Origin: Oscillospiraceae bacterium
GTDB lineage: Bacteria > Bacillota > Clostridia > Oscillospirales > Ruminococcaceae
NCBI GenBank assembly: GCA_017473745.1
Contig: JAFUJP010000094.1
Span: 1-45,286, forward strand
Length of the DNA: 45,286 nucleotides
Reading direction: 5' to 3'
Both the position numbers and the translations under genes were made by a program. How positions within the stretch are numbered: the stretch's first letter is position 1; every line of letters starts with the position of its first letter. A model generated the notes under the pieces. That model saw only the letters and a list, made by a program, of their open reading frames with translations, was not told the origin of the DNA and made no database searches. This document shows positions 7,090 to 31,359 of this stretch, in pieces.

Positions 7090-7160
7090 CGGCAAACTTC
7101 CTTTCTTCGGGATTTTTATAATAGAATAATTACATTTTATATATTGTGCTCGAACGGTGC

Positions 7161-12645: not shown

Positions 12646-12755
12646 GGAATAAATAAGATTTATATATTTTAATAAGGTTTGGGAAAGGGGGAAACCTCGC
12701 AAACAATATATTTTCCACGCTTAGGCATCCAAATTTTACAAAGGAGTGAGAATTT

Positions 12756-14123: not shown

Positions 14124-14171
14124 TTTAAGAAAAAGTGCGTAAAATATATTTGACGGGAGGATATACAAATA

Positions 14172-15050
14172 ATGGTATCTGATGACAAACTTAAAGAGAT
14201 TATCGCTCAGGTTGTCGGTGAAATGATGAAAGAAGCTCCCGCTGCAAAAGCTACCACCAAAGCTTGCTGCTGCGAGAATGTTTCTGATGATGATCTTGAA
14301 GATCTTACCGCATATGAGCTTAACGAGTGGTACCAGGTTCCTAACGCAAAAGATGAAGCAGAGTACAGAAGACTTAAAAAAGTTACCCCTGCACGTCTTG
14401 GCGTATGGCACTGCGGTCCTCGTGAAATGACTAACACCATGCTCCGTTTCCGTGCTGACCACGCTGCAGCACAGGACGCAGTATTCAATGAGTTCCCGAA
14501 AGAATTCCTCGAAGAACGCGGAATCCTCGAACTCCAGTCCCGTTGCGACAGCAAAGATACTTACCTTACCAGACCTGACCTTGGCAGAAGACTTTCCGAA
14601 GAGTCTGCACAGACCCTTAAAGGCTTCTACAAAAAGACTCCTCAGGTTGTTGTTTATGCAACCGACGGTCTTTCCGGTACTGCTATCGAAGCTAACTACG
14701 ACATCGTTATCCCCGCTATCATGAACGGTCTTAAAGCTCATGGTATCGAAGCAGGCGAACCCTTCTTCGTAAGATACGGTCGTGTTGCAACCCAGGACGA
14801 AGTTTCCGAAGTAACCGGTTGCGACGTTTGCGTATGCCTTGTTGGTGAAAGACCCGGTCTTGCAACTGCAAAATCCATGTCTGCATACCTCACTTACAAA
14901 GGCACCATCGGTATGTCCGAAGCAAGACGTACCGTTGTTTCCAACATTCACAATGCTGGTACTCCTGCAGCTGAAGCAGGTGCACACATTGCCGATATCG
15001 TAAAGCTTATGCTTGAAAACAAAGCTTCCGGTACCGACCTCAAGTTCTAA
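14172..15050 (+). CDS. eutC: Ethanolamine ammonia-lyase small subunit with an N-terminal encapsulation-peptide-like helix
   Basis: 292 aa with a conserved EutC core (TPARLGVWHCGPR.., VGERPGL). N-terminal amphipathic helix DDKLKEIIAQVVGEMMK followed by a linker. Confidence 0.9.
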   Translation: MVSDDKLKEIIAQVVGEMMKEAPAAKATTKACCCENVSDDDLEDLTAYELNEWYQVPNAKDEAEYRRLKKVTPARLGVWHCGPREMTNTMLRFRADHAAAQDAVFNEFPKEFLEERGILELQSRCDSKDTYLTRPDLGRRLSEESAQTLKGFYKKTPQVVVYATDGLSGTAIEANYDIVIPAIMNGLKAHGIEAGEPFFVRYGRVATQDEVSEVTGCDVCVCLVGERPGLATAKSMSAYLTYKGTIGMSEARRTVVSNIHNAGTPAAEAGAHIADIVKLMLENKASGTDLKF

Positions 15051-15142
15051 TAAATACTTGATTTTATAATTTATTATTTGCTTGATAATTGCGTAAAATA
15101 CGCAAATTTTATCTACCTTAAATTTTAAAGGAGGTACATATC

Positions 15143-15796
15143 GTGAAATACGATGAACTTAGAACTACTGTACTGATGATCAAGGTTATCCCGAGCGTAA
15201 GCCCTGACCTCCAGAAACAATGGAATATGCCCGAAGGCCACAGATCTGTTGGTTTCTTCTCTACTGACTGCGATGATGTCGGCTACACTGTAGTTGACGA
15301 AGCAACCAAAAAGGCTGACGTTAAAGTCGTACTTGCAAAATCCATGTACGGCGGCGCTGGCTGCGCACAGCAGAAATATGCTGGTGAATTCATCGGCATG
15401 CTTTCTGGCCCCAACCCTGCAGAAGTAAAAGCTGGCCTTGCTGCTGCTTTCGATCTTCTTAACGCTGACTGCACCTTCTATTCCGCAAACGAAGATGACA
15501 CTGTTGCATACTATGCATACACCATCTCCAGAACCGGTTCTTACCTTTCTGAATGCGGCGGCATTCCTGAAGGCAGCCCTATCGCATACCTCATCGCTCC
15601 TCCTGTAGAGTGCCAGTATGCAATCGATGCTGCTCTTAAAGCTGCTGACGTAAGAATGTGCGCATACTTCGAGCCTCCGTCTGAAACTAACTTCTCCGGT
15701 GCATATCTTACCGGCACCCAGTCTGCTTGCAAAGCTGCTTGCGATGCATTTGCAGATGCAGTTATTTTCTGCGTAGAGAACGCTCTCAAATACTAA
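15143..15796 (+). CDS. eutL: Microcompartment shell protein EutL (tandem-BMC trimer type)
   Basis: GTG start after aaaggagg. Contains VIPSVSPDL...STDCDDVGYTVVDEATKKADVKV; 217 aa. Confidence 0.9.
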   Translation: MKYDELRTTVLMIKVIPSVSPDLQKQWNMPEGHRSVGFFSTDCDDVGYTVVDEATKKADVKVVLAKSMYGGAGCAQQKYAGEFIGMLSGPNPAEVKAGLAAAFDLLNADCTFYSANEDDTVAYYAYTISRTGSYLSECGGIPEGSPIAYLIAPPVECQYAIDAALKAADVRMCAYFEPPSETNFSGAYLTGTQSACKAACDAFADAVIFCVENALKY

Positions 15797-15866
15797 TTTA
15801 AACCTTTTGACGTTGATTTAAGATACTCATTATATCTGAAATTTGAACGACAGGAGGTGACGGATT

Positions 15867-16430
15867 ATGAGTACTGGCGCACTGGGAATGCTGGAAACTT
15901 ATGGTCTGATCGCCGCTATCGAAGGTTTGGATGCTGCTGTTAAGGCAGCAAACGTAACCCTTTGCGGATTCAAATACGTCCAGGGCGGACTTGTTTGCTT
16001 TTTTGTAACCGGCGATGTCGGTGCAACCAAAGCAGCAATCGCCGCGGGCGAAATTGCCGCAGACAAAGTTGGCAAGGTCATTTCTTCCCATGTAATCCCG
16101 AGGCCCGCAGGAAGTACTTCTATTATTGCTTCCTATAAGGAAAAACCCGCCGGTAGACGCCGCGGAACCGGTATTCACAAACGTGAATTCCCTGCTAATA
16201 CTCCTGTGAAATCGGAACCGGCCGTAAAGCCCGAAGAACCGAAATCCGTCCCGGAAAGTGCAACTGAAACTGTCGGATACACCGAAGAAGCCCTCAGAGA
16301 GATGAAAACCACCGATCTGAGAAAGCTTGCTCGTGAAATTCCCGGCATCGGTCTCTCAAAGATCGAAATCAGAGACGCGAAAAAGGATCCGCTCGTAGAG
16401 GCGATTCTGAAAGCACAGAAAAATAATTAA
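15867..16430 (+). CDS. BMC-H shell protein with a ~95-aa C-terminal extension (EutK-like architecture)
   Basis: Residues 1-90 form a canonical BMC domain (ALGMLET.GL.AAIEGLDAAVKAANV...GDVGATKAA). These are followed by a basic stretch (KPAGRRRGTGIHKR), a Pro/Glu-rich linker and a Rho_N/SAP-like helix-extension-helix (LREMKTTDLRKLAREIPGIGLSK...LVEAILKAQ). Confidence 0.85.
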   Translation: MSTGALGMLETYGLIAAIEGLDAAVKAANVTLCGFKYVQGGLVCFFVTGDVGATKAAIAAGEIAADKVGKVISSHVIPRPAGSTSIIASYKEKPAGRRRGTGIHKREFPANTPVKSEPAVKPEEPKSVPESATETVGYTEEALREMKTTDLRKLAREIPGIGLSKIEIRDAKKDPLVEAILKAQKNN

Positions 16431-16444
16431 AGGAGCAATAAGAT

Positions 16445-17887
16445 ATGTTGCAAGATAGAGATTTGCTTTCTGTGCAAGAAGCTCGCGACATGATTAAAAA
16501 AGCTCGTATAGCTTTTGAAGCCGCAAAGCTTCTTAGTCAGGAGCAGATAGACAAAATCGTTAAAGCCATGTCTGAAGCTGCCTATGCTCATAAAGAAGAA
16601 CTTGCCAAAATGGCAGTTGAAGAAACCAGCATGGGTAAATATGAAGACAAGGTTATCAAGAACACTCTTGCTTCCAAAGCAGTTTATGAAGCAATCAAAG
16701 ACATGAAAACTGTCGGTATCGTTGCTGAATATCCTGAGCAGAAGATGTTCGAAGTTGCTGTGCCCGTAGGCGTAGTATGCGGTATCGTTCCCTGCACTAA
16801 CCCTACTTCCACTGCTATCTACAAATCCATGATTTGTATGAAAGCCGCTAACCCCGTTGTATTCAGCCCCCATCCTTCCGCAAAGAATTCCATCGCAAGA
16901 ACCTGCGAAATTCTTCGCGAGGCTGCTGAAAAGGCCGGTGCACCTGCAAATATGTTCCAGTGCCTTACTACCCTCAGCATGTCCGGAACTCATGAGCTTA
17001 TGACCAACGCCGGAGTCAACATGATCCTTGCGACCGGTGGCCCCGAAATGGTTAAAGCTGCATATTCTTCCGGTGTTCCTGCTCTCGGCGTAGGCGCAGG
17101 TAACGTTCCTGCATTCATCGATCACACTGCTGATGTCAAACTTGCTGTTAAGAGAATCTTTGCTTCCAAAACTTTCGATAACGGCGTAATTTGCGCATCT
17201 GAACAGTCCATCGTTGCAGAGAACTGCATTAAAGACCAGGTTCTCGAAGCTGTTAAAGCAGAAAAAGGCTATATCCTCAACGATGAAGAATACGCAAAAC
17301 TCTGCAAGATCTTTACCAGACGTCCCGGCAGCGTTAACCCCGCTATCGTTGGCCGTCCTGCAACCAAGATCGCTGCTATGGCCGGACTTGATGTTCCTGC
17401 TGATACCAGAGTTCTTTGCTATCCTGAAAAAGGCGTCGGCGACGAATATCCTTTCTCCATCGAGAAACTTTCTCCTTGCCTTGCTCTTTATTTTGAAGAG
17501 GATTGGCAGGCTTGCTGCGAACGCTGCATCCAGCTTCTCGAGTTTATCGGTATCGGACATTCTCTTTCCATGCATACCAACGACGAGAAAGTCGTCCGCG
17601 AGTTTGCTCTTAAGAAACCCGTATCCCGTATCCTCGTTAACACTTCTGCAGCACAGGGCGGCGTAGGCGCAACCACTAACCTTATGCCCGCACTCACTCT
17701 TGGATGCGGCGCTGTTGGCGGTTCTGCAACCAGCGACAACGTTTCTCCGCTTAACCTCATCAACCTCCGCCGTGTTGCTTATGGCGTAAAAGAGGCATGG
17801 GATCTTGCAGAGGCACCCGCTGAAGAGAAAGAACTCGATGCAGATGCCATTGCAAAAATGGTTATAGCTGCATTGAAAGAGCTTTAA
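16445..17887 (+). CDS. eutE: CoA-acylating acetaldehyde dehydrogenase
   Basis: 480 aa of the ALDH superfamily, with the catalytic Cys context [14 protein letters not shown]-terminal amphipathic helix [16 protein letters not shown] follows an AEAPAEEKE linker. Confidence 0.9.
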
Positions 17888-17955
17888 TCTCTTTCTAAAC
17901 TATATTTAGGTAGAACCAGGGGATTAGCCCCAATTTTTAAGGAGGTACTATCACA

Positions 17956-18240
17956 ATGACTGATAAACAAGCACTCGGCATGATCGAAACCAGAGGACTT
18001 GTCGGCGCTATCGAAGCAGCCGATGCCATGGTTAAAGCTGCTAACGTTACCCTCATCGGTAAAGTTCACGTCGGCGGCGGACTTGTAACCGTTTTCGTTC
18101 GCGGAGACGTTGGTGCAACCAAAGCTGCAACCGATGCAGGCGCTGCTGCTGCAGACCGCGTTGGCGAGCTTAAATCTGTACATGTAATTCCGAGACCCCA
18201 CGAGGAAGTTGAATACATCCTTCCTTCTCTCGAGAAATAA
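17956..18240 (+). CDS. eutM: BMC-H hexameric shell protein (EutM/PduA type)
   Basis: 94 aa: [30 protein letters not shown]...GDVGATKAA. Confidence 0.9.
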
Positions 18241-18267
18241 TTATTCACCTTTAAGGAGGAAGACACG

Positions 18268-18549
18268 ATGGCTGAGAAATTAGCACTTGGCATGATCGAG
18301 ACCAAAGGTCTTGTTGGAGCCATTGAGGCCGCTGATGCTATGGTTAAAGCCGCAAATGTCACCCTCGTTGGCAGAGTAATCGTTGGTGGCGCCCTCGTAA
18401 CCGTGTTCGTTCGCGGTGACGTCGGCGCTACCAAAGCCGCTGTTGACGCAGGTGCAGCTGCTGCAGACCGTGTTGGCGAGCTTATCTCCACTCATGTCAT
18501 CCCGAGCACCCATGAAGAGGTCGAGTATGTCCTCCCGTCCATCGAATAA
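18268..18549 (+). CDS. eutM: BMC-H hexameric shell protein (EutM/PduA type), tandem paralogue
   Basis: 93 aa, highly similar to the preceding gene. Confidence 0.9.
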
Positions 18550-18599
18550 TTCTGAATTTTAATTTGGAATTATAAGTATTATTAGATGGGGGTGATATT

Positions 18600-19367
18600 A
18601 TGAAAGTCATTACCGAGATGGTGCTCCGCAATGAGCTGAAAGGCGAATGCCCGCCCGTATATTATGTACCGAAGGACAAACTTCTTTCTCCCGCCGCGAA
18701 GGAATATCTGAACCAGCTTAAAATCAAAGTTGAATTCGGTGATCCGCCGGCAGCTCCTGCGCCTGCAGCATCCAATAATAAAGGTTCCGCCATCAGCGAT
18801 ACTCCCGTTGGAGCAAAATACGTTGATGAACTTACCGGAGCTTTTTATGTCAAAAAGCCGGAATATATGTGCCAGCTTTTCGGTAATAGATTGGTTTATA
18901 AAAATCATCCAAGGATTGCTTTCCGCGGTAAGCTTGACAGCATGAGTTCCACTGTGGTCCAGATCCAGGCAGAAATTGCCGCGACCAGCGGCCCCCAGAA
19001 ACTTATAGATGATCTTGGTGACATCAACAAGGTGCTTAACCAGATCATGTACTGTGAAGTTATGGATGAAGAAATGGGCGTTATGAACATTCTTGGGCTT
19101 ACCCCGGAAGAACTTCGCGCTCGTTCCCACAATCCGCAGAAGTATTTTAACATTAAGCAGATGCTTCTCCCTAACTATACCATGGGAGCTGATTATACTA
19201 AACTTAATGTGCTCCGTGCGAAAGTACGTGAGCTGGAGCTTGCTGCTCTCGATTGCTTTGTTGACGGCAAAAACGTTAAACAGCCCGAGATCATCAGGAC
19301 TCTCAACCGCCTTTCCAGTGCATTCCACATCATGATGTGTATGTATCTGGCAGGTGAATATAAATAA
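18600..19367 (+). CDS. eutT: EutT-type ATP:cob(I)alamin adenosyltransferase
   Basis: The N-terminus VITEMVLRNEL...LLSPAAKEYLNQLKIKVEF resembles the EutT N-terminus as I recall it. 255 aa, in the usual Firmicutes position between eutM and pduL. Assignment is from memory only. Confidence 0.65.
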   Translation: MKVITEMVLRNELKGECPPVYYVPKDKLLSPAAKEYLNQLKIKVEFGDPPAAPAPAASNNKGSAISDTPVGAKYVDELTGAFYVKKPEYMCQLFGNRLVYKNHPRIAFRGKLDSMSSTVVQIQAEIAATSGPQKLIDDLGDINKVLNQIMYCEVMDEEMGVMNILGLTPEELRARSHNPQKYFNIKQMLLPNYTMGADYTKLNVLRAKVRELELAALDCFVDGKNVKQPEIIRTLNRLSSAFHIMMCMYLAGEYK

Positions 19368-19382
19368 TTTAGGAGGAGACTC

Positions 19383-20000
19383 ATGGCTGTAGAAAAAGTC
19401 GTTGAAGCGGTTGTTGAAGAAATCAGATCCGCAGGACTTGTTCAATTAGAGGTCTCCGCCAGACACGTGCATCTGGATAAAGAGTGCGTAGAAGTACTCT
19501 TCGGCAAGGATTATAAGCTCACTCACGTAAGAGAGCTTAGCCAGCCCGGCCAGTATCTTGAACAGGAGAGAGTTGACGTTGTAGGCCCGAAAGGCACCTT
19601 CAAAAACGTTGCAGTTCTCGGCCCGGAAAGAAAGCACGTTCAGGTTGAGGTCTCGTTCAGCGATGCTTTCGCCCTTGGAATCAATCCCCCGATCAGACAG
19701 TCGGGAGACACCAAAGGTTCCGCAAGCGTAAAGCTTGTTGGCCCCAAAGGTGAAATTACTATTGACGAAGGCGCAATTGTCGCACTTCGCCATGTTCACA
19801 TGACTCCCGAAGATGCAGAAAGACTCGGCCTTGTTGATAACCAGGTCGTTTCCGTAGAAGCTCTTACCGACAGAAGAACTATCTTCCCGGATACCGTAAT
19901 CAGAGTTTCTCCGAATTTCCGCACTCGTATGCATGTTGACGTTGACGAAGCCGGCGCCGCACATATTGCTGGTTTTGCACTTGGCAGAATTATTAAATAA
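19383..20000 (+). CDS. pduL: PduL-type phosphotransacylase with an N-terminal encapsulation-peptide-like helix
   Basis: Two PduL repeats (SARHVHL.., LRHVHMTPEDAERLGL). The N-terminus VEKVVEAVVEEIRSAGL is amphipathic. Confidence 0.9.
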   Translation: MAVEKVVEAVVEEIRSAGLVQLEVSARHVHLDKECVEVLFGKDYKLTHVRELSQPGQYLEQERVDVVGPKGTFKNVAVLGPERKHVQVEVSFSDAFALGINPPIRQSGDTKGSASVKLVGPKGEITIDEGAIVALRHVHMTPEDAERLGLVDNQVVSVEALTDRRTIFPDTVIRVSPNFRTRMHVDVDEAGAAHIAGFALGRIIK

Positions 20001-20014
20001 GGATGTATAAATAA

Positions 20015-20836
20015 ATGGTCGATCTTGAAACAATAAACGCATACATGGCTCGTGTTACCGAGACTGAAACTATCGTACACAAGCCGTGTTCGAATAAGCT
20101 TAAGGTCGGAGTTGACCTTGGTACCGCTTATATCGTAATCGTTGTTCTCGATGAGGACAACAACCCCGTTGCCTGCGAAAAGCAGTTTGCACAGGTTGTC
20201 AAGGACGGTGTTCTTGTTGATTACGGCGGCGCCTGCAGAATCCTCAGGGAACTTAAAAAGAAACTTGAGGAGCGCCTTGGTGTTGAGCTTACCGAAGCTG
20301 CCATCGCTATGCCTGCGGGAACCGAATCCAGCGCCAAGACTCATAAATACTGCGTTGAGGGCGCGGGCTTTGACGTTGTCAATGTTCTTGATGAGCCCAC
20401 CGCAGCAAACTCCATCTATGGTATCAAAGACGGTGTCGTAGTTGACATCGGCGGCGGTACCACGGGCCTTGCGATCTTCAAAGACGGCGAAGTAGTTGAA
20501 GTCGATGACGAGCCGACCGGTGGTACCCATCTTTCTCTCGTTCTTGCCGGAAGCTATGGAATTCCTTTCGAGGACGCAGAGAAGATCAAAACCGATTACA
20601 CCCGTCACAGGGAAATTCTTCCCATAGTGAAACCGGTAATCGAGAAGATGGCCACTATCGTAAAAAAATATACATCCAGATATAACATCGACACCATCTA
20701 TCTTTGCGGAGGTACTTGCTGCCTTACCGGAATGGAGAAAGTGTTTGAAGATACAGTTGGCGTAAAGACTATTAAACCCGCAGACCCGTTCCTGGTTACA
20801 CCCACCGGTATAGCCATGAACTGTCTGGTTGATTGA
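20015..20836 (+). CDS. eutJ: EutJ, DnaK/actin-fold chaperone-like protein
   Basis: VGVDLGTAYIVIVV, VVDIGGGTTGLAIF, and EPTAAN-like motifs; 273 aa. Confidence 0.85.
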   Translation: MVDLETINAYMARVTETETIVHKPCSNKLKVGVDLGTAYIVIVVLDEDNNPVACEKQFAQVVKDGVLVDYGGACRILRELKKKLEERLGVELTEAAIAMPAGTESSAKTHKYCVEGAGFDVVNVLDEPTAANSIYGIKDGVVVDIGGGTTGLAIFKDGEVVEVDDEPTGGTHLSLVLAGSYGIPFEDAEKIKTDYTRHREILPIVKPVIEKMATIVKKYTSRYNIDTIYLCGGTCCLTGMEKVFEDTVGVKTIKPADPFLVTPTGIAMNCLVD

Positions 20837-20891
20837 TCAGACGCTACCATATCTTTTCCAATGAAAAGCATTGAAAAAGAAGGTGATAATT

Positions 20892-21632
20892 ATGGATATG
20901 GATTTGTTAATTGAGCTTGCAGTCCGTGCCGTAAAAGCTTATCTTGAAAAAGAGGGCGTTGTTGCGGCGGTTGCTCCTGTGGTGGAGCCCAGAAAGGCTC
21001 TTGTTCTTACCGAAGAACATTGCGGTGAAAACTGCTCCATTGAAGCATACGGAAGTGAGCTGTGCAAAGTTGATTGTGCTCTTGCACAGAATTACGAAGT
21101 TAATGTCAATGATTACGACGTTGTCGTGGTCCGCGACATGACAAACAGCAATTTGTTCAAGATCGCCAACGGCTGCACTGACAATAAGTTCCTTGCCCTT
21201 GCGGCCGAAGCGATCCTGAAGGGTAAACGCGTGGTTATGGTCAAAGAGTGCGTTGAAATTCTCAAATATGCAGAAACCGCACCCAAAGCACTGTATAATA
21301 ACATTTATAAAAATCTCCAGATCCTTCTCGACAGCGGCGTTGAGCTCGTTGAAGAGGAAAACGTAAAATCCGCCCTTACCGAGGGTATGGATGTTCCGGC
21401 AGAAGCACCTAAAGCAGAACCTGTTAAGGTCGAAAAAGAGGAAGCTCCGGCTCCCGCTGTCAAAGCGGAAAACGAAGATTCCGTTCTTGTGCTCACTAAA
21501 CGCGTTGTAACTGAGAGAGATATTAAAGAAGCTGCTGCAAAGCACTACAAAAAGGTACAGCTTCCCGAGAAGCCTGTTATCACTTATCTCGCTAAAGACA
21601 CCGCATTTGAGCTCGGCATCGAACTTCTCTGA
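20892..21632 (+). CDS. Uncharacterised eut-operon protein (EP-like N-terminus, central domain, PEAK-rich linker, C-terminal EutT-N-like module)
   Basis: ATG at 20892 follows gaaggtga (the ORF track uses a TTG at 20871). The coding frame is long and fits between eutJ and eutN. I recognise no catalytic motif. Confidence 0.6.
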   Translation: MDMDLLIELAVRAVKAYLEKEGVVAAVAPVVEPRKALVLTEEHCGENCSIEAYGSELCKVDCALAQNYEVNVNDYDVVVVRDMTNSNLFKIANGCTDNKFLALAAEAILKGKRVVMVKECVEILKYAETAPKALYNNIYKNLQILLDSGVELVEEENVKSALTEGMDVPAEAPKAEPVKVEKEEAPAPAVKAENEDSVLVLTKRVVTERDIKEAAAKHYKKVQLPEKPVITYLAKDTAFELGIELL

Positions 21633-21654
21633 TATTTAACGGAGGTATTACCTA

Positions 21655-21942
21655 ATGAGAATTGGTGTAGTAATAGGCAGTGTTTGGGCAACCAGAAAAG
21701 AACCCAAACTCGAAGGACTCAAGCTTCTCATCGTTGCTCCCCTTGACTACAAGATGAAGGGCAACACCACCCGAGAGCCGTATATCGCCGCCGACGTTGT
21801 TGACGCAGGTATCGGCGACAGAGTTCTTATCGTTAACGGTAACCCGGCAAGATATGCCGTCGGAACCAGTGTGCCTATCGATGCCGCAATAGTTGGTGTT
21901 ATCGATGATACTGTTCTTTCCAATCTTGAAAGTTTTCAGTGA
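21655..21942 (+). CDS. eutN: BMC-P pentameric vertex protein (EutN/CcmL family)
   Basis: 95 aa: MRIGVVIGSVWATRKEPKLEGLKLLIV...DAGIGDRVLIV. Confidence 0.85.
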   Translation: MRIGVVIGSVWATRKEPKLEGLKLLIVAPLDYKMKGNTTREPYIAADVVDAGIGDRVLIVNGNPARYAVGTSVPIDAAIVGVIDDTVLSNLESFQ

Positions 21943-22175
21943 TTGAATAAGAAAAGAACCTTGAAAAATCCTGTTTTCTGTTTCAAAAACAGGTATTAAC
22001 TGTCATTAGAGGAAAGTATGCACGCGAAAATAATACATATTTGCGCACGGATAAGCGGCCTTCGTTTTATCGGAGTATCCCGCGCAAGCTTTTCGTATTT
22101 GGTCTTTCGCAGGCATACGACCCTTTTATGAATATAGTTTGAGATATAAACTAATCTTTTTAGGAGGTCAATATT

Positions 22176-23405
22176 ATGTTCGATTTCTCTGAACTTGCTG
22201 CAGCATGGAATAGTTCCCTTCCTATGTTTGGCGAATCTCTTGCTGCTTGGGTTGATGGCCTTGCAATCAACTCTGTAGTTGTTATGGTTATGATGCTCTT
22301 CATGCTCTGGGGCGCAATTGACAAAATTATGGGTAACAAATTCGGCTACGGCGAACAGTTCGAAGAAGGCCTTAACTGCATGGGCCCTCTCGCTGTTTCC
22401 ATGGCTGGTGTTGTAGCAGTTGCTCCGCTTCTTGCTCTCGTTCTTAACCCCATCGTTGGACCTATCTACAACCTTGTTGGTGCAGACGCAGCAATGTTTG
22501 CTACTACTCTTCTCGCTTGCGACATGGGTGGTTATCCTCTCGCAATGTCCATGGCTGCTAACGAAGCAATCGGTAACTACGCTGGTCTTATCCTCGGCTC
22601 CATGATGGGCCCGACCATCGTTTTCACCATTCCTGTAGCTCTTGGTATCATCGATCCTGAAGATCGTCCTTACCTCGGCGCTGGTACCCTCGTTGGTATC
22701 GTTACCATCCCCGTAGGATGCATCGCTGGTGGTTTCGTCATGAACGCTATGACTTCTTACACCCTTTCCGTTGCTGACATCCTTCTCAACATGATCCCTG
22801 TTGTTATCATCGCAGGCGCTATCGCAGCTGGCCTTTGGTTCGCTCCTTCCGCTATGATGAAAGGCTTCGATAAATTCGGCACTGGCGTTACCATTTTCAT
22901 CACTGCTGTAACTGCTATCGCTATCTTCGAATACAACACCGGTATCGTATTCCCGCTCTTCAACCTCATGATGGATGACGGCACTGGCGTTAACGGCCTC
23001 GAATCCGGTCTTCTTACCTGCGGTATCATCGCAATCGTTCTTGCTGGTGCATATCCTATGGTTAAATTCGTTACCGACAAATTCGGCGGCGCTCTTGAAA
23101 AAGTTGGTTCCGCTCTCGGTATGAACGCTGCAGGTTCTGCAGGTCTTGTTGCAACCCTTGCTAACAACATCGCAATGTTCAACATCCTCAAAGACATGAA
23201 CCCGAAAGGTAAAGTTCTCAACTGCGCATTCGCTGTTTCCGCAGCATTCGTATTTGGTGACCACCTCGGCTTCTGCGCTGGTAACAATGCTGAAATGATC
23301 GTTCCTATGATCGTTGGTAAACTTGTTGCTGGTGTTCTCGCAGTAGTTCTCGGTAACTTCATGGCTCCTGCACTTCTCGCAAAAATCCCCGGCGCTGACA
23401 AATAA
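22176..23405 (+). CDS. eutH: Ethanolamine permease EutH
   Basis: 409 aa polytopic membrane protein. The N-terminal region (FMLWGAIDKIMGNKFGYGEQFEEG) is EutH-like. Strong AGGAGG ribosome-binding site. Confidence 0.9.
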   Translation: MFDFSELAAAWNSSLPMFGESLAAWVDGLAINSVVVMVMMLFMLWGAIDKIMGNKFGYGEQFEEGLNCMGPLAVSMAGVVAVAPLLALVLNPIVGPIYNLVGADAAMFATTLLACDMGGYPLAMSMAANEAIGNYAGLILGSMMGPTIVFTIPVALGIIDPEDRPYLGAGTLVGIVTIPVGCIAGGFVMNAMTSYTLSVADILLNMIPVVIIAGAIAAGLWFAPSAMMKGFDKFGTGVTIFITAVTAIAIFEYNTGIVFPLFNLMMDDGTGVNGLESGLLTCGIIAIVLAGAYPMVKFVTDKFGGALEKVGSALGMNAAGSAGLVATLANNIAMFNILKDMNPKGKVLNCAFAVSAAFVFGDHLGFCAGNNAEMIVPMIVGKLVAGVLAVVLGNFMAPALLAKIPGADK

Positions 23406-25150: not shown

Positions 25151-25212
25151 AAAAGATTGTTTTTGCATAGGAACAAACAGGTTTTTAGTTTATTTTCATT
25201 TTGAGGCTTGGA

Positions 25213-26256
25213 ATGAAGAAAATTTTATCTTTTGTTTTATTCGCGGTTATTTTTGCTGCGTTCGGGGTTAGTTCCTTTGCGGCAGAAAGCGCCGAGATAT
25301 CTTTCAACACCGTCGGGCCGGATGAAAACGGAAAGGTTTTTGTTGACGTTGTTATTTCCGGAAGCAGCGAACCTTCGATGCTTCAGTTTTGCGTAGCTTA
25401 TGACAGCGAAAAGCTTGATTGTGTTTCTGTCAATGCGGGGAATGCCTTTTCCGGAAATCTTGCCCCGACCATAAACGCGGCCGAAGGCAAAATCTTTTTC
25501 GTATGGGATTCCCTTAACCCTATCAATGGGAGCGGAACGCTTTTGAGAATTGAGTTTGCTCCAAAGGCGGCGAGCCTTGAAACTTCGGTTTGGATAGACG
25601 AATCCGAGGATTTTATCGTTTCGGATGAGAGCTTTGAAAATATCGGTGTTATCGGAGCAAAAGCGGATATAAGCGTTTCTGAAAACGCAGAAGACTCATC
25701 TTCTGAAAGAAGCGAGGATACTTCGTATTCCGAAAGTTCGGAAGAAAATTCCGAAGGTTCTTCAAAATCCGAAAGTTCCGAAGATTCTGAAAATTCCGGG
25801 CAGGGTGGAGCACAAAGCTCGCCAGAGGCGGAAACCGGATACAGCAACGGTATTGAAATTGAAAAAACACAGCTTACGATAAACGTTGGCGAAGAAACTG
25901 CCATAGGTATCGGTGAAACCGATAAAAAGGTTTACTGGTACAGCAGCAACGAAAACATCGTGCGGGTCGAGGACGGGAAGATAATTGCCGTTGCACCCGG
26001 AACGGCAACCGTCACCGTTACAACCGAAGACGGGCTTGAGGAAGCGGCGTGTATCGTTCTCGTTATGGGCGAAGCGGTTTCGGATGATTCTTCCGAATCC
26101 GAAAGCGGCGTTATCGAGGTGGATTCACCCAGAAAGGAAAAGGAAGATTCCGTTCCGGTATGGGCGTGGATAGTTATTGCGGCCCTTGGGGGCGGCATCA
26201 TTTGCGTTTCTGTTATCCTTGTTAAAAAAGCAGGGGTTGCGAACAAAAAACAGTAA
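25213..26256 (+). CDS. Membrane-anchored surface protein: signal peptide, cohesin-type module, Ser/Glu-rich linker, Big_2-like Ig domain, C-terminal TM helix
   Basis: Signal peptide MKKILSFVLFAVIFAAFGVSSFA. Cohesin-like motifs SMLQFCVAYDSEKLD, GKIFFVWDS, LLRIEFAPKA. Ig-like segment VRVEDGKIIAVAPGTATVTVTTEDG. TM helix WAWIVIAALGGGIICVSVILV followed by KK. Confidence 0.75.
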   Translation: MKKILSFVLFAVIFAAFGVSSFAAESAEISFNTVGPDENGKVFVDVVISGSSEPSMLQFCVAYDSEKLDCVSVNAGNAFSGNLAPTINAAEGKIFFVWDSLNPINGSGTLLRIEFAPKAASLETSVWIDESEDFIVSDESFENIGVIGAKADISVSENAEDSSSERSEDTSYSESSEENSEGSSKSESSEDSENSGQGGAQSSPEAETGYSNGIEIEKTQLTINVGEETAIGIGETDKKVYWYSSNENIVRVEDGKIIAVAPGTATVTVTTEDGLEEAACIVLVMGEAVSDDSSESESGVIEVDSPRKEKEDSVPVWAWIVIAALGGGIICVSVILVKKAGVANKKQ

Positions 26257-26365
26257 TTCGGGGGGGAGTTTTCCCGAAAAAATGCTCCGCGGATATGCGG
26301 ATAAATAAGTCGACCGATTCCGGTGGAATATTATATACAGCAAATTTTTTTGCAGGAGGAAAGTT

Positions 26366-28126
26366 ATGAAAAAGTTTATTTCACTCATTCTTGCTGTGAT
26401 GATGGTTCTTTCATGTTCCGTCGTTTCTATGGCAGAAGAAACTGCACCCGCATTTAAGTTTGTTTCTGAACCTTTTACCGAAGAGGGACAGGAACAAACC
26501 GTTAAACTCGTTGCAGAAAATGTCGGCGGCATTACTATGCTTCAGTTCACCATCGAATATGATGCTGAAAAACTCGAGCTTGTAAGCTGCACTGCTGCTG
26601 ATTCAATCGCAGCCAACACCTTAGTGAATGCTGAAAAAGCAGGCAGAATTATCGTTGTTTATGACAGCACTGTTGCGGCTGTTATCGAAGACGCTGTTGT
26701 TACCATGGTTTTCAAAGCGGTTTCTGACGAACTTGGCGAAACTGTTATTGGATTCAACGACGAAGAAGATTTTATCGTATGTGACGATAAATTCTCTGAA
26801 ATTGTTTTCGAAGAAGAAAATAAAGCAGACCATGAAGTTGAAATCGACTACGTTCATGAACATGAATGGGGCGACTGGAAGGTAACTGCAGAGCCCGGCT
26901 GCACCACCGGCGGCCAGGAAACTCGTTACTGCATCTGCTACAACGGAACCTGCGATGAATTTGAAACCAGAGAAACTGAAGCTGCCGGCCATACTCCCGG
27001 TGAAGCAGTTGTTGAAAACGAAGTAGCACCTTCCTGCGAAACCGAAGGTTCCTATGATACCGTTGTTTACTGCGCAGTTTGCAAAGAAGAACTCAGCAGA
27101 GAGACTACCACTGTTCCTGCAACCGGCCACACTTGGGGCGACTGGGTTGTAACCAAAGAAGGTTCCTGTGAAGAATACGGTGAAGAAACCCGCACCTGCG
27201 CAATCTGCGGCGAAACCGAAACCAGAGCTACCGAACAGCTTGGTCATAAATTCGGGGAATGGGTCGTAACAAAAGAAGCAACCTGCGAAGAAGCCGGTGA
27301 AGAAACCAGCACCTGCAGCGCTTGCGGCGATGTAGTTACCAGAGAGATCCCTGCTCTTGGCCATTCCTATAACGAAGGCGTTGTAACCACCGAGCCTACC
27401 TGCGAAGGCAAAGGCGTTAAAACCTATACCTGCGCAACCTGCGGCGGAACCTATACCGAAGAAGTTCCTGCACTCGGTCATACTCCCGGCGAAGCTGTTG
27501 TTGAAAACGAAGTAGCACCTTCCTGCGAAACCGATGGTTCCTATGATACCGTTGTTTACTGCACCGTTTGCGAAGAAGAGATCAGCAGAGAAATTACCAC
27601 TGTTCCTGCACTCGGCCATTCCTATGACGAAGGCGTTGTAACCACCGAGCCTACCTGTGAAGGCAAAGGCGTTAAAACCTATACCTGCGCAACCTGCGGC
27701 GGAACCAAAACCGAAGATGTTCCCGAACTTGGTCACGATTATCAGTATGAAATCGTAAAAGAACCCGGCTGTGAAGAAGAAGGCGAAAGAAAGGTTACCT
27801 GCTCTCGCTGCGATTATGAGAAAATCGAAGCAATCGAAGCTCTCGGCCACGAATGGGGCGCATGGAAAGTCGTAAAACAGCCCAGCTACACTGAAGAAGG
27901 ACTTTCTCAGCGTGTTTGCGAAAAATGCGGCGAAATTGAAACCAAGGCTATTCCGAAACTTGTTGATAAAGATTACGTCAACCCCGGCGTAACCGTAATT
28001 ACTCCCGGCAATAAAAACGACGGCGAAGCCAACCCCAACACCGGTGCCGCTTCTGCAATCGGCGTTGCTGTTCTCGTAGCAGTTTGCGGTGCTGCAGCAG
28101 TTGTTTCCGGCAAAAAGAATAAATAA
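26366..28126 (+). CDS. Cell-wall-sorted surface protein: signal peptide, cohesin-type module, nine Cys-rich ~40-aa repeats, NPNTG sorting signal
   Basis: Signal peptide MKKFISLILAVMMVLSCSVVSMA. Cohesin motifs TMLQFTIEYDAEKLE, GRIIVVYDS. Repeats follow GH..(W/Y)..VVT.E.TCE..G..T.TC..CG...T..IPALGH. The C-terminus has NPNTG, a hydrophobic helix and KKNK. Confidence 0.8.
   Translation: MKKFISLILAVMMVLSCSVVSMAEETAPAFKFVSEPFTEEGQEQTVKLVAENVGGITMLQFTIEYDAEKLELVSCTAADSIAANTLVNAEKAGRIIVVYDSTVAAVIEDAVVTMVFKAVSDELGETVIGFNDEEDFIVCDDKFSEIVFEEENKADHEVEIDYVHEHEWGDWKVTAEPGCTTGGQETRYCICYNGTCDEFETRETEAAGHTPGEAVVENEVAPSCETEGSYDTVVYCAVCKEELSRETTTVPATGHTWGDWVVTKEGSCEEYGEETRTCAICGETETRATEQLGHKFGEWVVTKEATCEEAGEETSTCSACGDVVTREIPALGHSYNEGVVTTEPTCEGKGVKTYTCATCGGTYTEEVPALGHTPGEAVVENEVAPSCETDGSYDTVVYCTVCEEEISREITTVPALGHSYDEGVVTTEPTCEGKGVKTYTCATCGGTKTEDVPELGHDYQYEIVKEPGCEEEGERKVTCSRCDYEKIEAIEALGHEWGAWKVVKQPSYTEEGLSQRVCEKCGEIETKAIPKLVDKDYVNPGVTVITPGNKNDGEANPNTGAASAIGVAVLVAVCGAAAVVSGKKNK
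26855..27961 (+). repeat. Coding tandem array: nine copies of a Cys3-His ~36-46-aa repeat
   Basis: Repeats begin at HEWGDW, HTPGEA, HTWGDW, HKFGEW, HSYNEG, HTPGEA, HSYDEG, HDYQYE and HEWGAW. Two pairs (R2/R6 and R5/R7) are ~90% identical at the DNA level, counted by hand. Confidence 0.85.
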
Positions 28127-28150
28127 AAACTGTTTTTAACAGACCGACCA

Positions 28151-28192
28151 ATACAAACCTGCCTTTTTACCAAGGCAGGTTTGTATATTTTA
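28151..28192 (+). terminator. Rho-independent terminator
   Basis: 14-bp stem atacaaacctgcct/aggcaggtttgtat followed by attttat. Confidence 0.7.
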
Positions 28193-28221
28193 TAACCGAA
28201 AAACAGGAAAAAGGTGACACA

Positions 28222-31200
28222 ATGAAAAAGTTTTTTGCAATGCTTTTAGCGCTTTCAATGGTTTTTAATATGTCAATTTCTACCTTTGCATTGCACGAAG
28301 ACGAAACGAACATAGAAAACGTCAGCGGTATCATTGAAGATTCCGTTGTTTCTGTAAACCCTGTTTATGAAGGACTTGTCAGCGAAGAGGATTTGGTCGG
28401 CGAGGCAGAGGGAGTTTCTTCCTATGCGGCGGCGAATTATGTGGATTCGCTTGAAGAAGCAGGCGAGATTTTGCGTGAACAGCTTAAAGAACGAAAAAAT
28501 CCGGTTATTGTTTATTACATCGCCGATGAATATGATCAACAGCTTTTTACCGATTTGATTAATGCAGCATATGTCCATACCGGCGACCCGACCGAGGGTG
28601 ATTATATCAGATTTAACAATATCGGCTGGCATGGAAGCGTAAACGGTAAGAACAGCAACGGCGCTTATTACTTTACTTTCACTTATACCATGACCTATTG
28701 CGCAACGGCGGAGCAGGAAAAAGAAGTGGATAAAAAGGTGGATTCCGTTATAGCGGGCCTTAAGCTTGCGGGAAAAAACCAGTATGAAAAGGTTTGCGCA
28801 ATTTATGACTATATCTGCGAAAACGTAACCTATGACTATGAGAATCTCAACGATGATTCATATATTCTTAAATTCAGCACCTATGCGGCGCTTATAGATG
28901 AAACTGCGGTTTGCCAGGGGTATGCGACCCTTTTCTATCGCCTTGCGCTTGAAGCGGGGATAGATTCGAGGGTGATTACCGGAATCGGAAACGGCGGAAA
29001 CCACGCATGGAACGTCGTTGAGCTTTCAAAGCTTTATTATAATCTTGATTCAACCTGGGATGCCGGTTCTGAAAATTATCGTTACTTCCTCAGAAGCAAC
29101 GATAATTTCGACGACCATTACAGAGACAGTGAATATGAAACCAAGCAGTTCAACAAGAGCTACCCCATGGGTGAAACCGACTATGACCCCTCAAAGGCGG
29201 AATCTGATATTATTGATTCCGGTCATTGCGGCGGCGAAAGCGGCGGAACAAACATTATGTGGGAAATAGACAAGTACGGCGTTCTCACCTTGACGGGTGA
29301 GGGGGCAACTTCCAGTTTTGCTCCGAACGGCAACTCCCGCTGGCTCGAATATAAAGATATTATAACCGGGCTTGTTATCGGCGAGGGTATCACCCACATC
29401 GGCGATTGCGCATTTATGGGGCTCGAAAATCTTTCGGGAACAGTTGAACTTCCAAAATCGCTTGTTTCCATCGGAAACAGCGCATTCAGAGGATGCGATA
29501 AGCTCAGCGGCGGTCTTGTCATTCCGGAAAATGTTACCGAAATCGGGCATTTTGCTTTCTATGAATGCGAAAGCCTTGACGGAAAGCTTGTTCTTAACGA
29601 AGGATTAAACACCATCGGAAACTATTCTTTCAGCGGATGTACCGGATTTGAAGAGAGTCTTGACGTTCCGTCGAGCGTAACAAAAATCGGCGGCTATGCT
29701 TTTTATAACTGCAGCATAAATGAATATAATTTTGTCGGCGACGCGCCGGAGGTCGGTGCGGCATCTGGAGATATGCCTTCGTTTGATGAAGATGATACGA
29801 TACACTATCCTGCGGATAACGAAACATGGAACACCGCAGGCGGAAAATGGAACGGTTTTAACGCAAAAGGCTTCGGCGAAGTGAAAAACGCGACTCTTAC
29901 GATAGAATCAGCCGAGATTTCCGTTGGAAACAGCGAAACGGTTTCCGTAAGCATTTCCGAAGGTTCCAACGCTTCTATGATTCAGTTTGCACTGAAATAC
30001 GATTCCGATGTTCTTGAAGTCGCTGCCTGCAAGGGTGAAGGACTTTTTGAAGATGCGGCCATCAACACAAACGAGAAAGGTTTAATCATTTTTGCTTGGG
30101 ATTCCCTTGATGCGGTGGAAGAAGCGGGAAAGCTTATCAGCATCGAATTCAGGGTCAAAGACGGCGTCAAAGCAAAGGAAACGGCCATTGAAGTTGATAT
30201 GACCGAAACTTTCATTTTTGCGGATTCGGATTATAAGGATATCAACGTCGAAATAATCATCGGAAAAATAAGTATTATTGATATAATTTACGGCGATCTT
30301 AACGACGACGGAAAAATAAACGTTATTGACGCAAATATGGTGCGCCGCGCCGCCGCAAGACTTATCGAGCTTGATGAAACGCACGAAAAAGCCGCGGACG
30401 TCAGCGGTGACGGAAAAGTTAACGTCATTGATGCAAACGTGGTGCGCAGATATGCCGCCAAGCTGATAGACAGCTTCCCGGTGGGCTCGGGGCACACCCA
30501 CAGCTATTCGGAGGAAATTACGGAGAAAGAAGCTACCTGCGTTGAAGAAGGCATTGTTTCTTCCACCTGCACCGAATGCGGCGAAAAGGTCACAAAGACC
30601 ATACCGGCTCTCGGACATGATTATTCCGAAGAGGTTACGCTTAAAGCGACCTGTACCGATGGCGGAGTTATTACATATACTTGCACAAGATGTGATGACA
30701 GCTACACCGAAACGACAACCCCCACCGGACACAGCTGGAAAGAAGCGGACTGCGTTTCTCCCAGAAGTTGTGAGGAATGCGGTGAGCAGGAGGGCGAAGC
30801 CCTCGGGCATGATTACGTCGGCGGAAACTGCACTACACCCGGCGAATGCAGCAGATGCGGGGAAAAAGGAACCGAACCGGGACATAATTTTGAGGACGGT
30901 TTCTGCACCGAATGCGATGCTCTCGATCCGGATGTATGGCTCAGCGAAAGCGAGCTTTACAGCATTGCCAGCGAATTCAGCGATCTTGTTGATTATGCCA
31001 TAGCGGCAGAAGATTTTTCTTCGGAAGCAGTGGATTATTATGAAAGAGGCTATTCAAGCTCGGCGAAATCTTCGGCGGAGGATGCCCAGTATTATGGTCT
31101 TTACGTTCGGGAATACATTCTTTCGGTATATGAAATGCTCGGAGATTTTGATTGCAGCTATAATTTCGACGGAATGTGGCTTTCGCTTAAAGAATGCCTT

Positions 31201-31359
31201 GCGGAGGCATATTATTATTACGAAGATGCCATAGCGGTCGATCTCGGAACGGTTTCAAACGTATATGAAGTTGAAGAATATATTCTTTACGGAAATTCCT
31301 TCCTTGCGGGAGCACAGGAAATAATCTACTTTATGATTGAAAACGGAATATATGTTTAA
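28222..31359 (+). CDS. Secreted multidomain protein: transglutaminase-like cysteine protease core, BspA-type LRRs, cohesin-type module, dockerin, Cys-rich repeats, unknown C-terminal domain
   Basis: Signal peptide present. Cys-His-Asp triad context VCQGYATLF / NHAWNVV / LDSTWD. LRRs IGDCAF..L.G.V.LP.S..SIGN.AF..C repeated about 5 times. Cohesin motifs SMIQFALKYDSDVLE, GLIIFAWDS. Dockerin loops DLNDDGKINVID and DVSGDGKVNVID. 1045 aa. Confidence 0.8.
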   Translation: MKKFFAMLLALSMVFNMSISTFALHEDETNIENVSGIIEDSVVSVNPVYEGLVSEEDLVGEAEGVSSYAAANYVDSLEEAGEILREQLKERKNPVIVYYIADEYDQQLFTDLINAAYVHTGDPTEGDYIRFNNIGWHGSVNGKNSNGAYYFTFTYTMTYCATAEQEKEVDKKVDSVIAGLKLAGKNQYEKVCAIYDYICENVTYDYENLNDDSYILKFSTYAALIDETAVCQGYATLFYRLALEAGIDSRVITGIGNGGNHAWNVVELSKLYYNLDSTWDAGSENYRYFLRSNDNFDDHYRDSEYETKQFNKSYPMGETDYDPSKAESDIIDSGHCGGESGGTNIMWEIDKYGVLTLTGEGATSSFAPNGNSRWLEYKDIITGLVIGEGITHIGDCAFMGLENLSGTVELPKSLVSIGNSAFRGCDKLSGGLVIPENVTEIGHFAFYECESLDGKLVLNEGLNTIGNYSFSGCTGFEESLDVPSSVTKIGGYAFYNCSINEYNFVGDAPEVGAASGDMPSFDEDDTIHYPADNETWNTAGGKWNGFNAKGFGEVKNATLTIESAEISVGNSETVSVSISEGSNASMIQFALKYDSDVLEVAACKGEGLFEDAAINTNEKGLIIFAWDSLDAVEEAGKLISIEFRVKDGVKAKETAIEVDMTETFIFADSDYKDINVEIIIGKISIIDIIYGDLNDDGKINVIDANMVRRAAARLIELDETHEKAADVSGDGKVNVIDANVVRRYAAKLIDSFPVGSGHTHSYSEEITEKEATCVEEGIVSSTCTECGEKVTKTIPALGHDYSEEVTLKATCTDGGVITYTCTRCDDSYTETTTPTGHSWKEADCVSPRSCEECGEQEGEALGHDYVGGNCTTPGECSRCGEKGTEPGHNFEDGFCTECDALDPDVWLSESELYSIASEFSDLVDYAIAAEDFSSEAVDYYERGYSSSAKSSAEDAQYYGLYVREYILSVYEMLGDFDCSYNFDGMWLSLKECLAEAYYYYEDAIAVDLGTVSNVYEVEEYILYGNSFLAGAQEIIYFMIENGIYV
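30283..30477 (+). other. Dockerin module (two EF-hand-like Ca-binding repeats) inside CDS 28222..31359
   Basis: YGDLNDDGKINVIDANMVRRAAARL...AADVSGDGKVNVIDANVVRRYAAKL. Confidence 0.8.
30490..30930 (+). repeat. Coding tandem array: 4-5 copies of the same Cys-rich repeat as in the preceding gene
   Basis: GHTHSY..ATCVEEG..STCTECG..IPALGHDY..ATCTDGG..YTCTRCD..PTGHSW..C..SCEECG..ALGHDY..C..ECSRCG..PGHNF..FCTEC. Confidence 0.8.

Follow-up and report, generated by a model that had tools for sequence, protein, structure and literature searches.

For the IgA protease of Thomasclavelia ramosa (IgAse or ThomasA, UniProt Q9AES2) two papers of 2025 described a pair of domains, ZBD1 and ZBD2 (= CTD2 and CTD4), as built of three-stranded sheets, with zinc sites of His and Cys predicted where sheet meets sheet, and proposed them, from predicted models only, as a possibly novel zinc-binding rod or 'periscope' fold (PMC12237041, PMC12415215). 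The structures of these domains are predictions, the ZBD part of entry 9QA6 is not described as resolved, and neither paper reports a family size, a sequence model or rules of ligand swapping (PMC12237041, PMC12415215). Isolated CTD2 gives small-angle X-ray scattering that is fitted by a rod at full extension (PMC12415215), and a distant resemblance of the ZBDs to TFIIS was noted (PMC12237041). The subject of this study is a relative of these domains encoded in a window of 45,286 nucleotides from an Oscillospiraceae bacterium (NCBI GenBank assembly GCA_017473745.1, contig JAFUJP010000094.1, positions 1 to 45,286): a unit of about 39 residues with conserved Cys and His that follows the cohesin of one surface protein (gene 2) in nine tandem copies and recurs in the product of the next gene (gene 3). 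Sequence statistics and predicted models make it likely that such an array is a chain of mini-sheets, each junction of which is locked by one metal ion, and that the whole forms a stiff stalk. Positions within the unit are numbered from its leading His (His1) to the end of a 39-position profile, so that Cys14, for example, is the Cys at position 14.

A profile of 127 units matches the PDB chain of the IgA protease (9qa6_A, residues 852-881, 938-979 and 1102-1133, E 6.2e-14), a single-sequence query of the PDB sequences found nothing, and by sequence comparison the module is a homologue of ZBD1/ZBD2. Earlier work had come across it in a single IgA protease, as a predicted new fold, and the window holds its canonical form; what is added here is the very large extent of the family, the rules of ligand swapping and a short variant of the unit. 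A first-pass annotation of this DNA, made from the sequence alone, had called the module unrecognised. This holds as far as Pfam and NCBIfam models and solved structures are concerned, but homologues had been described in 2025 in the T. ramosa protease, in descriptions that rest on predicted models. In scans of Pfam-A and NCBIfam with the window proteins and 13 multi-copy relatives (including proteins with 18-25 copies) no model for the unit was found; weak matches to many zinc-knuckle families span 'T-C-x2-C-G' only, and all Pfam zinc-ribbon scores stay below their cut-offs. Literature beyond the 2025 IgA-protease papers yielded no description of the family, and a 2026 preprint on a ruminococcal cellulosome is silent on the module.

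How do the arrays of the window compare with the described systems? With the IgA protease they share sequence homology, three-stranded sheets placed end to end and predicted tetrahedral Cys/His sites at the interfaces, and the ZBDs, like the array of gene 2, lie just upstream of a sortase anchor and were proposed to act as a rod-like spacer. The protease has two to three sheets per domain with other domains in between, whereas gene 2 carries an uninterrupted array of nine units together with a cohesin. Furthermore, the loss of Cys14 from the units of the protease ('ATATTAG') makes most of its predicted sites His2Cys2, whereas in the window the Cys3His form is in the majority.

The G5/E repeats of SasG and Aap, which form the stalks of periscope proteins (PMC9704523), are likewise elongated tandem arrays of flat β-sheets without a normal hydrophobic core, and they project a functional head from the Gram-positive wall, the role proposed for the array; the comparison was drawn in PMC12415215. 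They match the unit neither in sequence nor in fold, and in Aap zinc bridges two molecules via His, Asp and Glu, whereas in the array the metal is predicted to lie between successive units of one chain, bound via Cys and His. Of the marks of a periscope protein, the tandem rod-like array between head and wall anchor is seen in gene 2 with its order of signal peptide, cohesin, nine units and NPxTG. Another such mark is that the DNA repeats are closely alike and differ in copy number from strain to strain (PMC9704523); the gene 2 units are 62-92% identical in DNA with one recent block duplication, and no orthologue was found with which to compare copy numbers.

Two further folds come to mind as well. 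Classical zinc ribbons (the C-terminal domain of TFIIS, RPA12/Rpb9, the N-terminus of NrdR; Pfam Zn_ribbon) resemble the unit in their small three-stranded antiparallel sheet and in the C-x2-C-G knuckle at the tip of a hairpin. They have two knuckles (C-x2-C or C-x2-H) and one zinc per domain, whereas the unit has one knuckle, its other ligands are predicted to be a lone His and the Cys of a neighbouring unit, and it is extracellular and arranged in tandem. The likeness to C2H2 zinc fingers lies in 'T-E-x-G-E-x-T-R/Y-T-C-x2-C-G', which resembles linker plus hairpin, 'TGEKPYKCPECGK' (profile positions 19-34; for example 27299-27346 of the window), and which gives summed matches of hidden Markov models (HMMs) to designed poly-zinc-finger proteins (2i13, 1mey). 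A C2H2 finger has the order β-β-α with two His on the helix, whereas the AlphaFold2 (AF2) models of the unit show neither a helix nor an H-x3-5-H pair, and the likeness probably reflects a common knuckle motif and not shared ancestry.

Predicted fold of the unit and probable position of the metal site

The unit is confidently predicted to be a small three-stranded antiparallel up-and-down β-sheet. AF2 models of units 3-5 of gene 2 (65-row alignment; pLDDT, the predicted value of the local distance difference test, 96.9; predicted template modelling score, pTM, 0.64) and of a single unit (127-row alignment; pLDDT 91.1) have strands at positions 7-10, 19-24 and 30-34 of each unit and are free of helices. 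Covariation within the unit gives the register of β2 and β3 (pairs 20-33, 22-31, 23-30 and 19-34) and that of β1 and β2 (pairs 6-22, 9-19 and 9-21), and it places residues 2-3 beside the knuckle (pairs 2-25, 2-26 and 3-29). Foldseek, which the first-pass annotation had proposed for single unit and array, found no significant match in the PDB with either the three-unit or the one-unit model. The single unit came closest, without significance, to zinc ribbons, namely NrdR, and RPA12 with TMq 0.49-0.57 (E at least 0.6), and rows with Ig-like, titin and S-layer proteins were discarded as noise (TM < 0.3). Among predicted viral structures the three-unit model matched two virome proteins, both of which carry this repeat (E 1e-10 and 2e-7; TMq 0.56 over 90 columns).

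Conservation was assessed over 2,466 full units, drawn from the top 150 proteins, which are unrelated and giant. His occupies position 1 in 99% of these units, Gly position 18 and Cys position 24 in 100% each, Cys position 27 in 93% (Asp in 4%) and Cys position 14 in 87%, with Glu as commonest replacement (5%); outside the ligands and Gly18 the surface positions vary freely. Of 108 units with Asp in place of Cys27, 93 have His at position 30, as do 28 of 35 units with Asn, whereas in units that keep Cys27 the five residues seen most often at position 30 do not include His; a C-x2-D-G-C form also occurs. Read from the alignment, such swaps of Cys for His or Asp are what metal ligands typically show and disulfides do not. 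Together with the swaps of Cys14 for Glu they bear out the earlier doubt about simple disulfide pairs. They also uphold the metal-type character of the Cys/His set in the Cys3His module that the first-pass annotation had suggested, but its placement of the site within one unit probably does not stand, as covariation and the retention of Cys14 point to a site between units; binding itself is predicted.

The evidence for a site between units is of several kinds. Using a motif-based detector of neighbours, Cys14 was found in 96.1% of units that have a following unit but in only 66% of terminal units (odds ratio 12.4, p = 1e-114). A unit starts with H-x-H, that is with an additional His two residues before His1, in 0.3% of cases when its predecessor has Cys14 and in 48% when the predecessor lacks it. 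In 988 consecutive unit pairs the best non-trivial covariation joins positions 38, 14 and 15 of one unit (n) to positions 26, 25 and 2 of the one after it (n+1). Moreover, the up-and-down course of the strands brings His1 and the β2-β3 knuckle to one end of the sheet and the β1-β2 loop with Cys14 to the other, where it faces the next unit. The swaps between Cys27 and His30, the dependence of Cys14 on a next unit and the compensation by H-x-H point to a putative site between units. As far as the sequences indicate, it is probably made up of Cys14 in the β1-β2 loop of unit n and of the leading His1 and the two Cys of the C-x2-C knuckle (Cys24 and Cys27) of unit n+1, an assignment that would agree with the interface sites of the published IgA-protease models (PMC12237041, PMC12415215). 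Of all the Cys and His in the two window arrays, the scheme leaves a single one unused, an extra Cys in unit 1 of gene 2, and it explains the HEH and HTH starts, the odd number of Cys, the Cys-less position 14 (Tyr508) of unit 9 and the shortened units of gene 3.

Some observations weigh against a stalk with a metal ion at every junction. The covariation between units is modest, with a mutual information (average product corrected) of 0.06-0.26 as compared with 0.4-0.7 within the sheet. Cys14 is still present in those 66% of 'terminal' units, which is explained in part by the detector missing short-variant neighbours, and in a few percent of units it is replaced by Thr, Tyr or Ala, which are not ligands, so that some junctions may lack a full site. 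The pTM of 0.64 means that in the three-unit model the orientation of sheet to sheet is less certain than each sheet. The proposed geometry between units draws on covariation, strand topology and published models, and the metal sites across the family, those of the IgA protease included, are predictions. The data show the repeat, its homology and spread, a confidently predicted sheet in each unit and the covariation of the ligands; that a metal is bound, which metal it is, and how stiff and how long the stalk would be are what we infer.

A candidate stalk and other readings

How could such an array work? The three-stranded antiparallel sheets, one per about 39 residues, would be placed end to end, and each junction would hold one structural metal ion in tetrahedral coordination, most probably Zn2+, the metal that analogy with structural sites of the Cys3His and Cys2His2 type makes likeliest. 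In the first unit of an array, which has no upstream Cys, the extra His at position -2 (H-x-H) would take over, and the last unit, which has no downstream partner, could lose the Cys at position 14. Gene 2 would thus hold nine sites, one His2Cys2 and eight Cys3His, and gene 3 five. The resulting stiff and thin stalk would keep the cohesin at the N-terminus at a distance from the C-terminus with its sortase anchor. The three-sheet model of ZBD1 is about 110 Å long (PMC12237041), and extrapolated from it at about 37 Å per sheet nine units would measure about 30 nm. In the strictly anaerobic hosts the ions would replace both hydrophobic core and disulfides.

It could be imagined that the array is more than a passive spacer and serves as a ligand- or cell-binding surface, as a store or buffer of zinc, or as a zinc- or redox-sensitive switch of stiffness. 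Up to 91 units per protein and the presence of the module in adhesin-like proteins with LRR, CAP and SLH partners speak in favor of such a role, and regulation by zinc was raised as a possibility (PMC12415215). However, the free variation of surface positions beyond the ligands and Gly18 is what would be expected of a spacer, the predicted sites are fully coordinated with no free position (PMC12415215), and for catalysis the IgA protease can do without its C-terminal domains (PMC12237041). We consider an active array unlikely.

Alternatively, each unit of about 39 residues could be a self-contained domain akin to a zinc knuckle or zinc ribbon, in which its own three Cys and the boundary His bind one metal. 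The four residues are indeed conserved inside the unit, residues 2-3 covary with the knuckle of their own unit, and the nearest, albeit non-significant, fold matches of a single unit are the zinc ribbons NrdR and RPA12. In the predicted sheet, however, the Cys14 loop lies at the opposite end from His1 and the β2-β3 knuckle, retention of Cys14 tracks the presence of a next unit while its loss is compensated in that next unit, and the published models put the sites at interfaces (PMC12237041). A site of this kind is accordingly judged quite improbable. That the Cys form disulfides within or between units (EGF-like or similar), with a structural His and no metal, would suit extracellular proteins, as Cys-rich extracellular repeats are usually disulfide-bonded, but is very hard to reconcile with three Cys per unit, with replacements of Cys27 by Asp or Asn along with a new His at +3 and of Cys14 by Glu or a His of the next unit, which conserve ligands and not disulfides, with hosts that are strict gut anaerobes, and with an IgA-protease homologue in which no disulfides were seen and for which reducing agent was needed to keep it monodisperse (PMC12237041).

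The arrays of genes 2 and 3 and their locus

The array with predicted metal sites between its units is best followed in gene 2 (26366-28126; this and the other features of the three surface-protein genes are on the plus strand). Cut at each His, the protein yields nine units of 38-46 residues (aa 166-533, nt 26861-27964), as many as the first-pass annotation had counted after the cohesin; seven have 38-43 residues, and units 2 and 6 are 46-residue variants with two insertions. Unit 1 with its preceding extra His (26855-26989; 28.8 bits, this and the following scores being those against the unit profile) begins with 'HEHEW' (H164, H166) and has an atypical knuckle, C189-x-C191-x4-C196. Position 26855, earlier given as the start of the array, is not the start of a unit, which is 26861, but it is the codon of the extra His, H164, a predicted ligand of site 1. 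Unit 2 (26990-27127) is a 46-residue long variant and a near-copy of unit 6, its score of 11 bits being weak owing to the insertions. It is followed by unit 3 (27128-27244; W/R subtype, 47.9 bits), unit 4 (27245-27361; W subtype, 63.6 bits), unit 5 (27362-27478; G/Y subtype, 56.2 bits), unit 6 (27479-27616; the other 46-residue long variant, 14.1 bits), unit 7 (27617-27733; G/Y subtype, 50.9 bits), unit 8 (27734-27847; 45.3 bits) and the terminal unit 9 (27848-27964; 47.7 bits), after which no unit comes.

Three Cys per unit, stated earlier as an exact number, is correct as the general pattern but fails for unit 1, which has four (C-x9-C-x-C-x4-C). Unit 9 has two and carries Tyr508 at position 14, in agreement with the earlier observation that its first Cys is missing. 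In the light of the family alignment this loss is not decay but expected of the last unit of an array, because no unit follows with which the site could be shared. Site 1 of gene 2 is predicted to be His2Cys2-like and to consist of H164, which stands in for the preceding Cys, H166 and two of C189, C191 and C196; a possible alternative to this putative site is that all three of these Cys bind with H166 alone. The candidate ligands of the other sites are C179 of unit 1 with H209, C236 and C239 (site 2), C224 of unit 2 with H255, C278 and C281 (site 3), C268 of unit 3 with H294, C317 and C320 (site 4), C307 of unit 4 with H333, C356 and C359 (site 5), C346 of unit 5 with H372, C399 and C402 (site 6), C387 of unit 6 with H418, C441 and C444 (site 7), C431 of unit 7 with H457, C479 and C482 (site 8), and C469 of unit 8 with H495, C518 and C521 (site 9).

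Units 5 and 7, at 92% DNA identity, mark the recent block duplication. Tandem Repeats Finder did not report the array at the DNA level but only an 18-nt repeat, because the units are 62-92% identical and unequal in length; what is repeated is the protein unit and not a DNA copy. Antisense to the whole repeat array runs an open reading frame (ORF) of 409 codons (26621-27850, minus strand) whose translation is rich in Gly, Phe and Ala and without family match. It is almost certainly no gene but a consequence of repetition and codon bias in the sense strand.

The array of gene 3 (30493-30930) comprises two full and three shortened units, and so the earlier statement that the module recurs in the next gene, in part in shortened form, is confirmed. 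The full-length units 1 and 2 (30493-30729; 44.9 and 38.0 bits) open with 'HTH' (H758, H760; 'HTHSY'). Units 3-5 (30730-30930) are shortened hairpin variants of the form H-x6-7-C-x5-C-x2-C, the last one H-x6-C-x2-C, and are not detected by the full-length profile. The five predicted sites would be formed by H758, standing in for the preceding Cys, with H760, C783 and C786 (site 1), by C773 with H799, C821 and C824 (site 2), by C811 with H837, C850 and C853 (site 3), by C844 with H863, C876 and C879 (site 4), and by C870 with H888, C895 and C898 (site 5). The short form is not peculiar to gene 3: sought as the pattern H-x5-8-C-x4-6-C-x2-C-x5-10-G-H in 404 fetched related proteins and in shuffles of them, it occurs 69 times in 27 of the 404 proteins and 0 times in the shuffled copies.

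Both genes belong to a row of three consecutive genes for surface proteins (25201-31359), each with a cohesin. Gene 1 (25201-26256) encodes a cohesin, a Big_2 domain and a C-terminal membrane helix. In the 586-residue product of gene 2, taken from the ORF list, a signal peptide is followed by the cohesin, the nine-unit array and the NPxTG anchor. This domain order confirms the position of the array as a spacer between cohesin and wall anchor, as given in the first-pass annotation. The cohesin (26486-26761, aa 41-132), which would be the functional head on the stalk, matches Pfam PF00963 with 28.1 bits (cut-off 24.1, E 2.7e-6). The C-terminal sorting signal (28031-28120, aa 556-585) was recognized in the translation by its motif, NPNTG followed by a hydrophobic stretch and a basic tail, and scores 22.7 bits with NCBIfam NF033846 (Rumino_NPXTG), a borderline value just below the cut-off of 23.5. 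An identical gene 2 protein is present on an ENA metagenome contig. No orthologue was found in the searched collections, whose genome representatives do not include the source species; the best non-self match is 43% identical and covers the repeats only.

Gene 3 (28222-31359) encodes 1045 residues with a transglutaminase-like core, a BspA-type LRR, a cohesin, a dockerin (48.2 bits), the five-unit array and a C-terminal region (Pfam Transglut_core, LRR_5, Cohesin and Dockerin_1). Its array sits C-terminal to the dockerin, and about 140 residues lie beyond it; these (aa 904-1045, 30931-31359), which come after the last short unit, are acidic and rich in Tyr, Glu and Ser, with no family match and no anchor motif. 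Cell-wall-anchored cohesin scaffoldins are recognized by features that the locus shows, namely the cohesin and sorting signal of gene 2, the latter with its borderline score, and a dockerin-bearing neighbor in gene 3. Taken together, the three cohesin genes and the dockerin, transglutaminase-like core and LRR of gene 3 look like a small locus for a cellulosome-like or adhesin assembly.

Directly upstream of the surface-protein genes lies a complete-looking ethanolamine utilization cluster (11206-23405) with EutA, EutB, EutC, an aldehyde dehydrogenase, a cobalamin adenosyltransferase, EutH and an actin-fold ATPase (Pfam matches of the FtsA/MreB/PilM type); EutQ and an amidohydrolase were found on the matching metagenome contig. 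A further ORF (6112-7410, minus strand), unrelated to the array, has matches to AAA+ ATPases of the IstB/DnaA type and could encode a DnaC-like helicase loader or an IS21 helper.

Extent of the family and its meaning

A distribution scan with an HMM of the unit, as the first-pass annotation had suggested, was carried out by searching the 39-position profile exhaustively against 1.84 billion representative proteins. It matches 69,845 protein clusters at E ≤ 1e-3, 39,181 at E ≤ 1e-10 and 11,907 at E ≤ 1e-30, and the top matches are proteins of 850-7,583 residues with 15-91 matched stretches each. Relatives in genomes and metagenome-assembled genomes come from many groups, among them Lachnospiraceae, Oscillospiraceae, Acutalibacteraceae, Ruminococcaceae, Christensenellales, Bacilli, Atopobiaceae, Monoglobus, Butyrivibrio and one Treponema genome; the hosts are strict gut anaerobes. 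The partner domains and signals found in module proteins are cohesin, dockerin, SLH, CAP, LRR_5, Big_2, transglutaminase and sortase signals. Judged from this company the module is always extracellular.

Named relatives are almost always 'hypothetical protein' in the source records. One of these, a repeat-bearing protein of 810 residues (P0376), occurs with identical sequence on about 400 contigs (NCBI, MGnify, JGI, Logan, ENA), so that at least one very common species of the gut has the module. Labels of DUF6400 and zf-BED on some relatives (P0287, P0291, P0293, P0295) were rejected as spurious, as they come from summed partial matches with zero significant stretches; these precomputed Pfam labels pass the whole-protein cut-off only by summing and are an annotation pitfall for the family. 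The repeat is also seen beside SLH or LRR in a few gut phage or virome contigs (MT835476.1, PV036458.1, MT835477.1, MT838068.1; BFVD entries A0A8S5QLF9 and A0A8S5SUG5), which may represent genuine proteins of phages or else DNA of bacteria that ended up in virome bins.

What would such a module mean for the bacteria that carry it? Gut Clostridia and their relatives apparently use an economical stalk unit on a huge scale. One sheet takes about 39 residues and, according to the models, spans roughly 3.5 nm; an Ig-like domain takes about 100 residues. The module carries cohesins, adhesin-like LRR and CAP domains, S-layer anchors and an IgA protease. Among the extracellular domain families of gut Bacillota that lack annotation it may be one of the largest, with at least 70,000 clusters at 50% identity and as many as 91 copies in a protein, and one in which the mini-sheets are held by metal and not by hydrophobic cores or disulfides. 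We advance this far-reaching proposition as a rather unlikely one. If true, stiffness and length of the stalk would depend on zinc supply and redox state, the display of cohesin complexes, adhesins and proteases would be coupled to zinc withholding or oxidative bursts of the host, and the arrays could hold a substantial extracellular pool of zinc.

The ligand rules, Cys14 of unit n with His1, Cys24 and Cys27 of unit n+1, the H-x-H start, the C-x2-[DN]-x2-H knuckle and the short hairpin variant, enable annotation of the family, and together with the sequence model they allow the number of metal sites per protein to be predicted and minimal constructs to be designed. To our knowledge, anaerobes are generally without disulfide machinery. 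The rules would allow a direct test of whether zinc or redox state controls surface display in these anaerobes.

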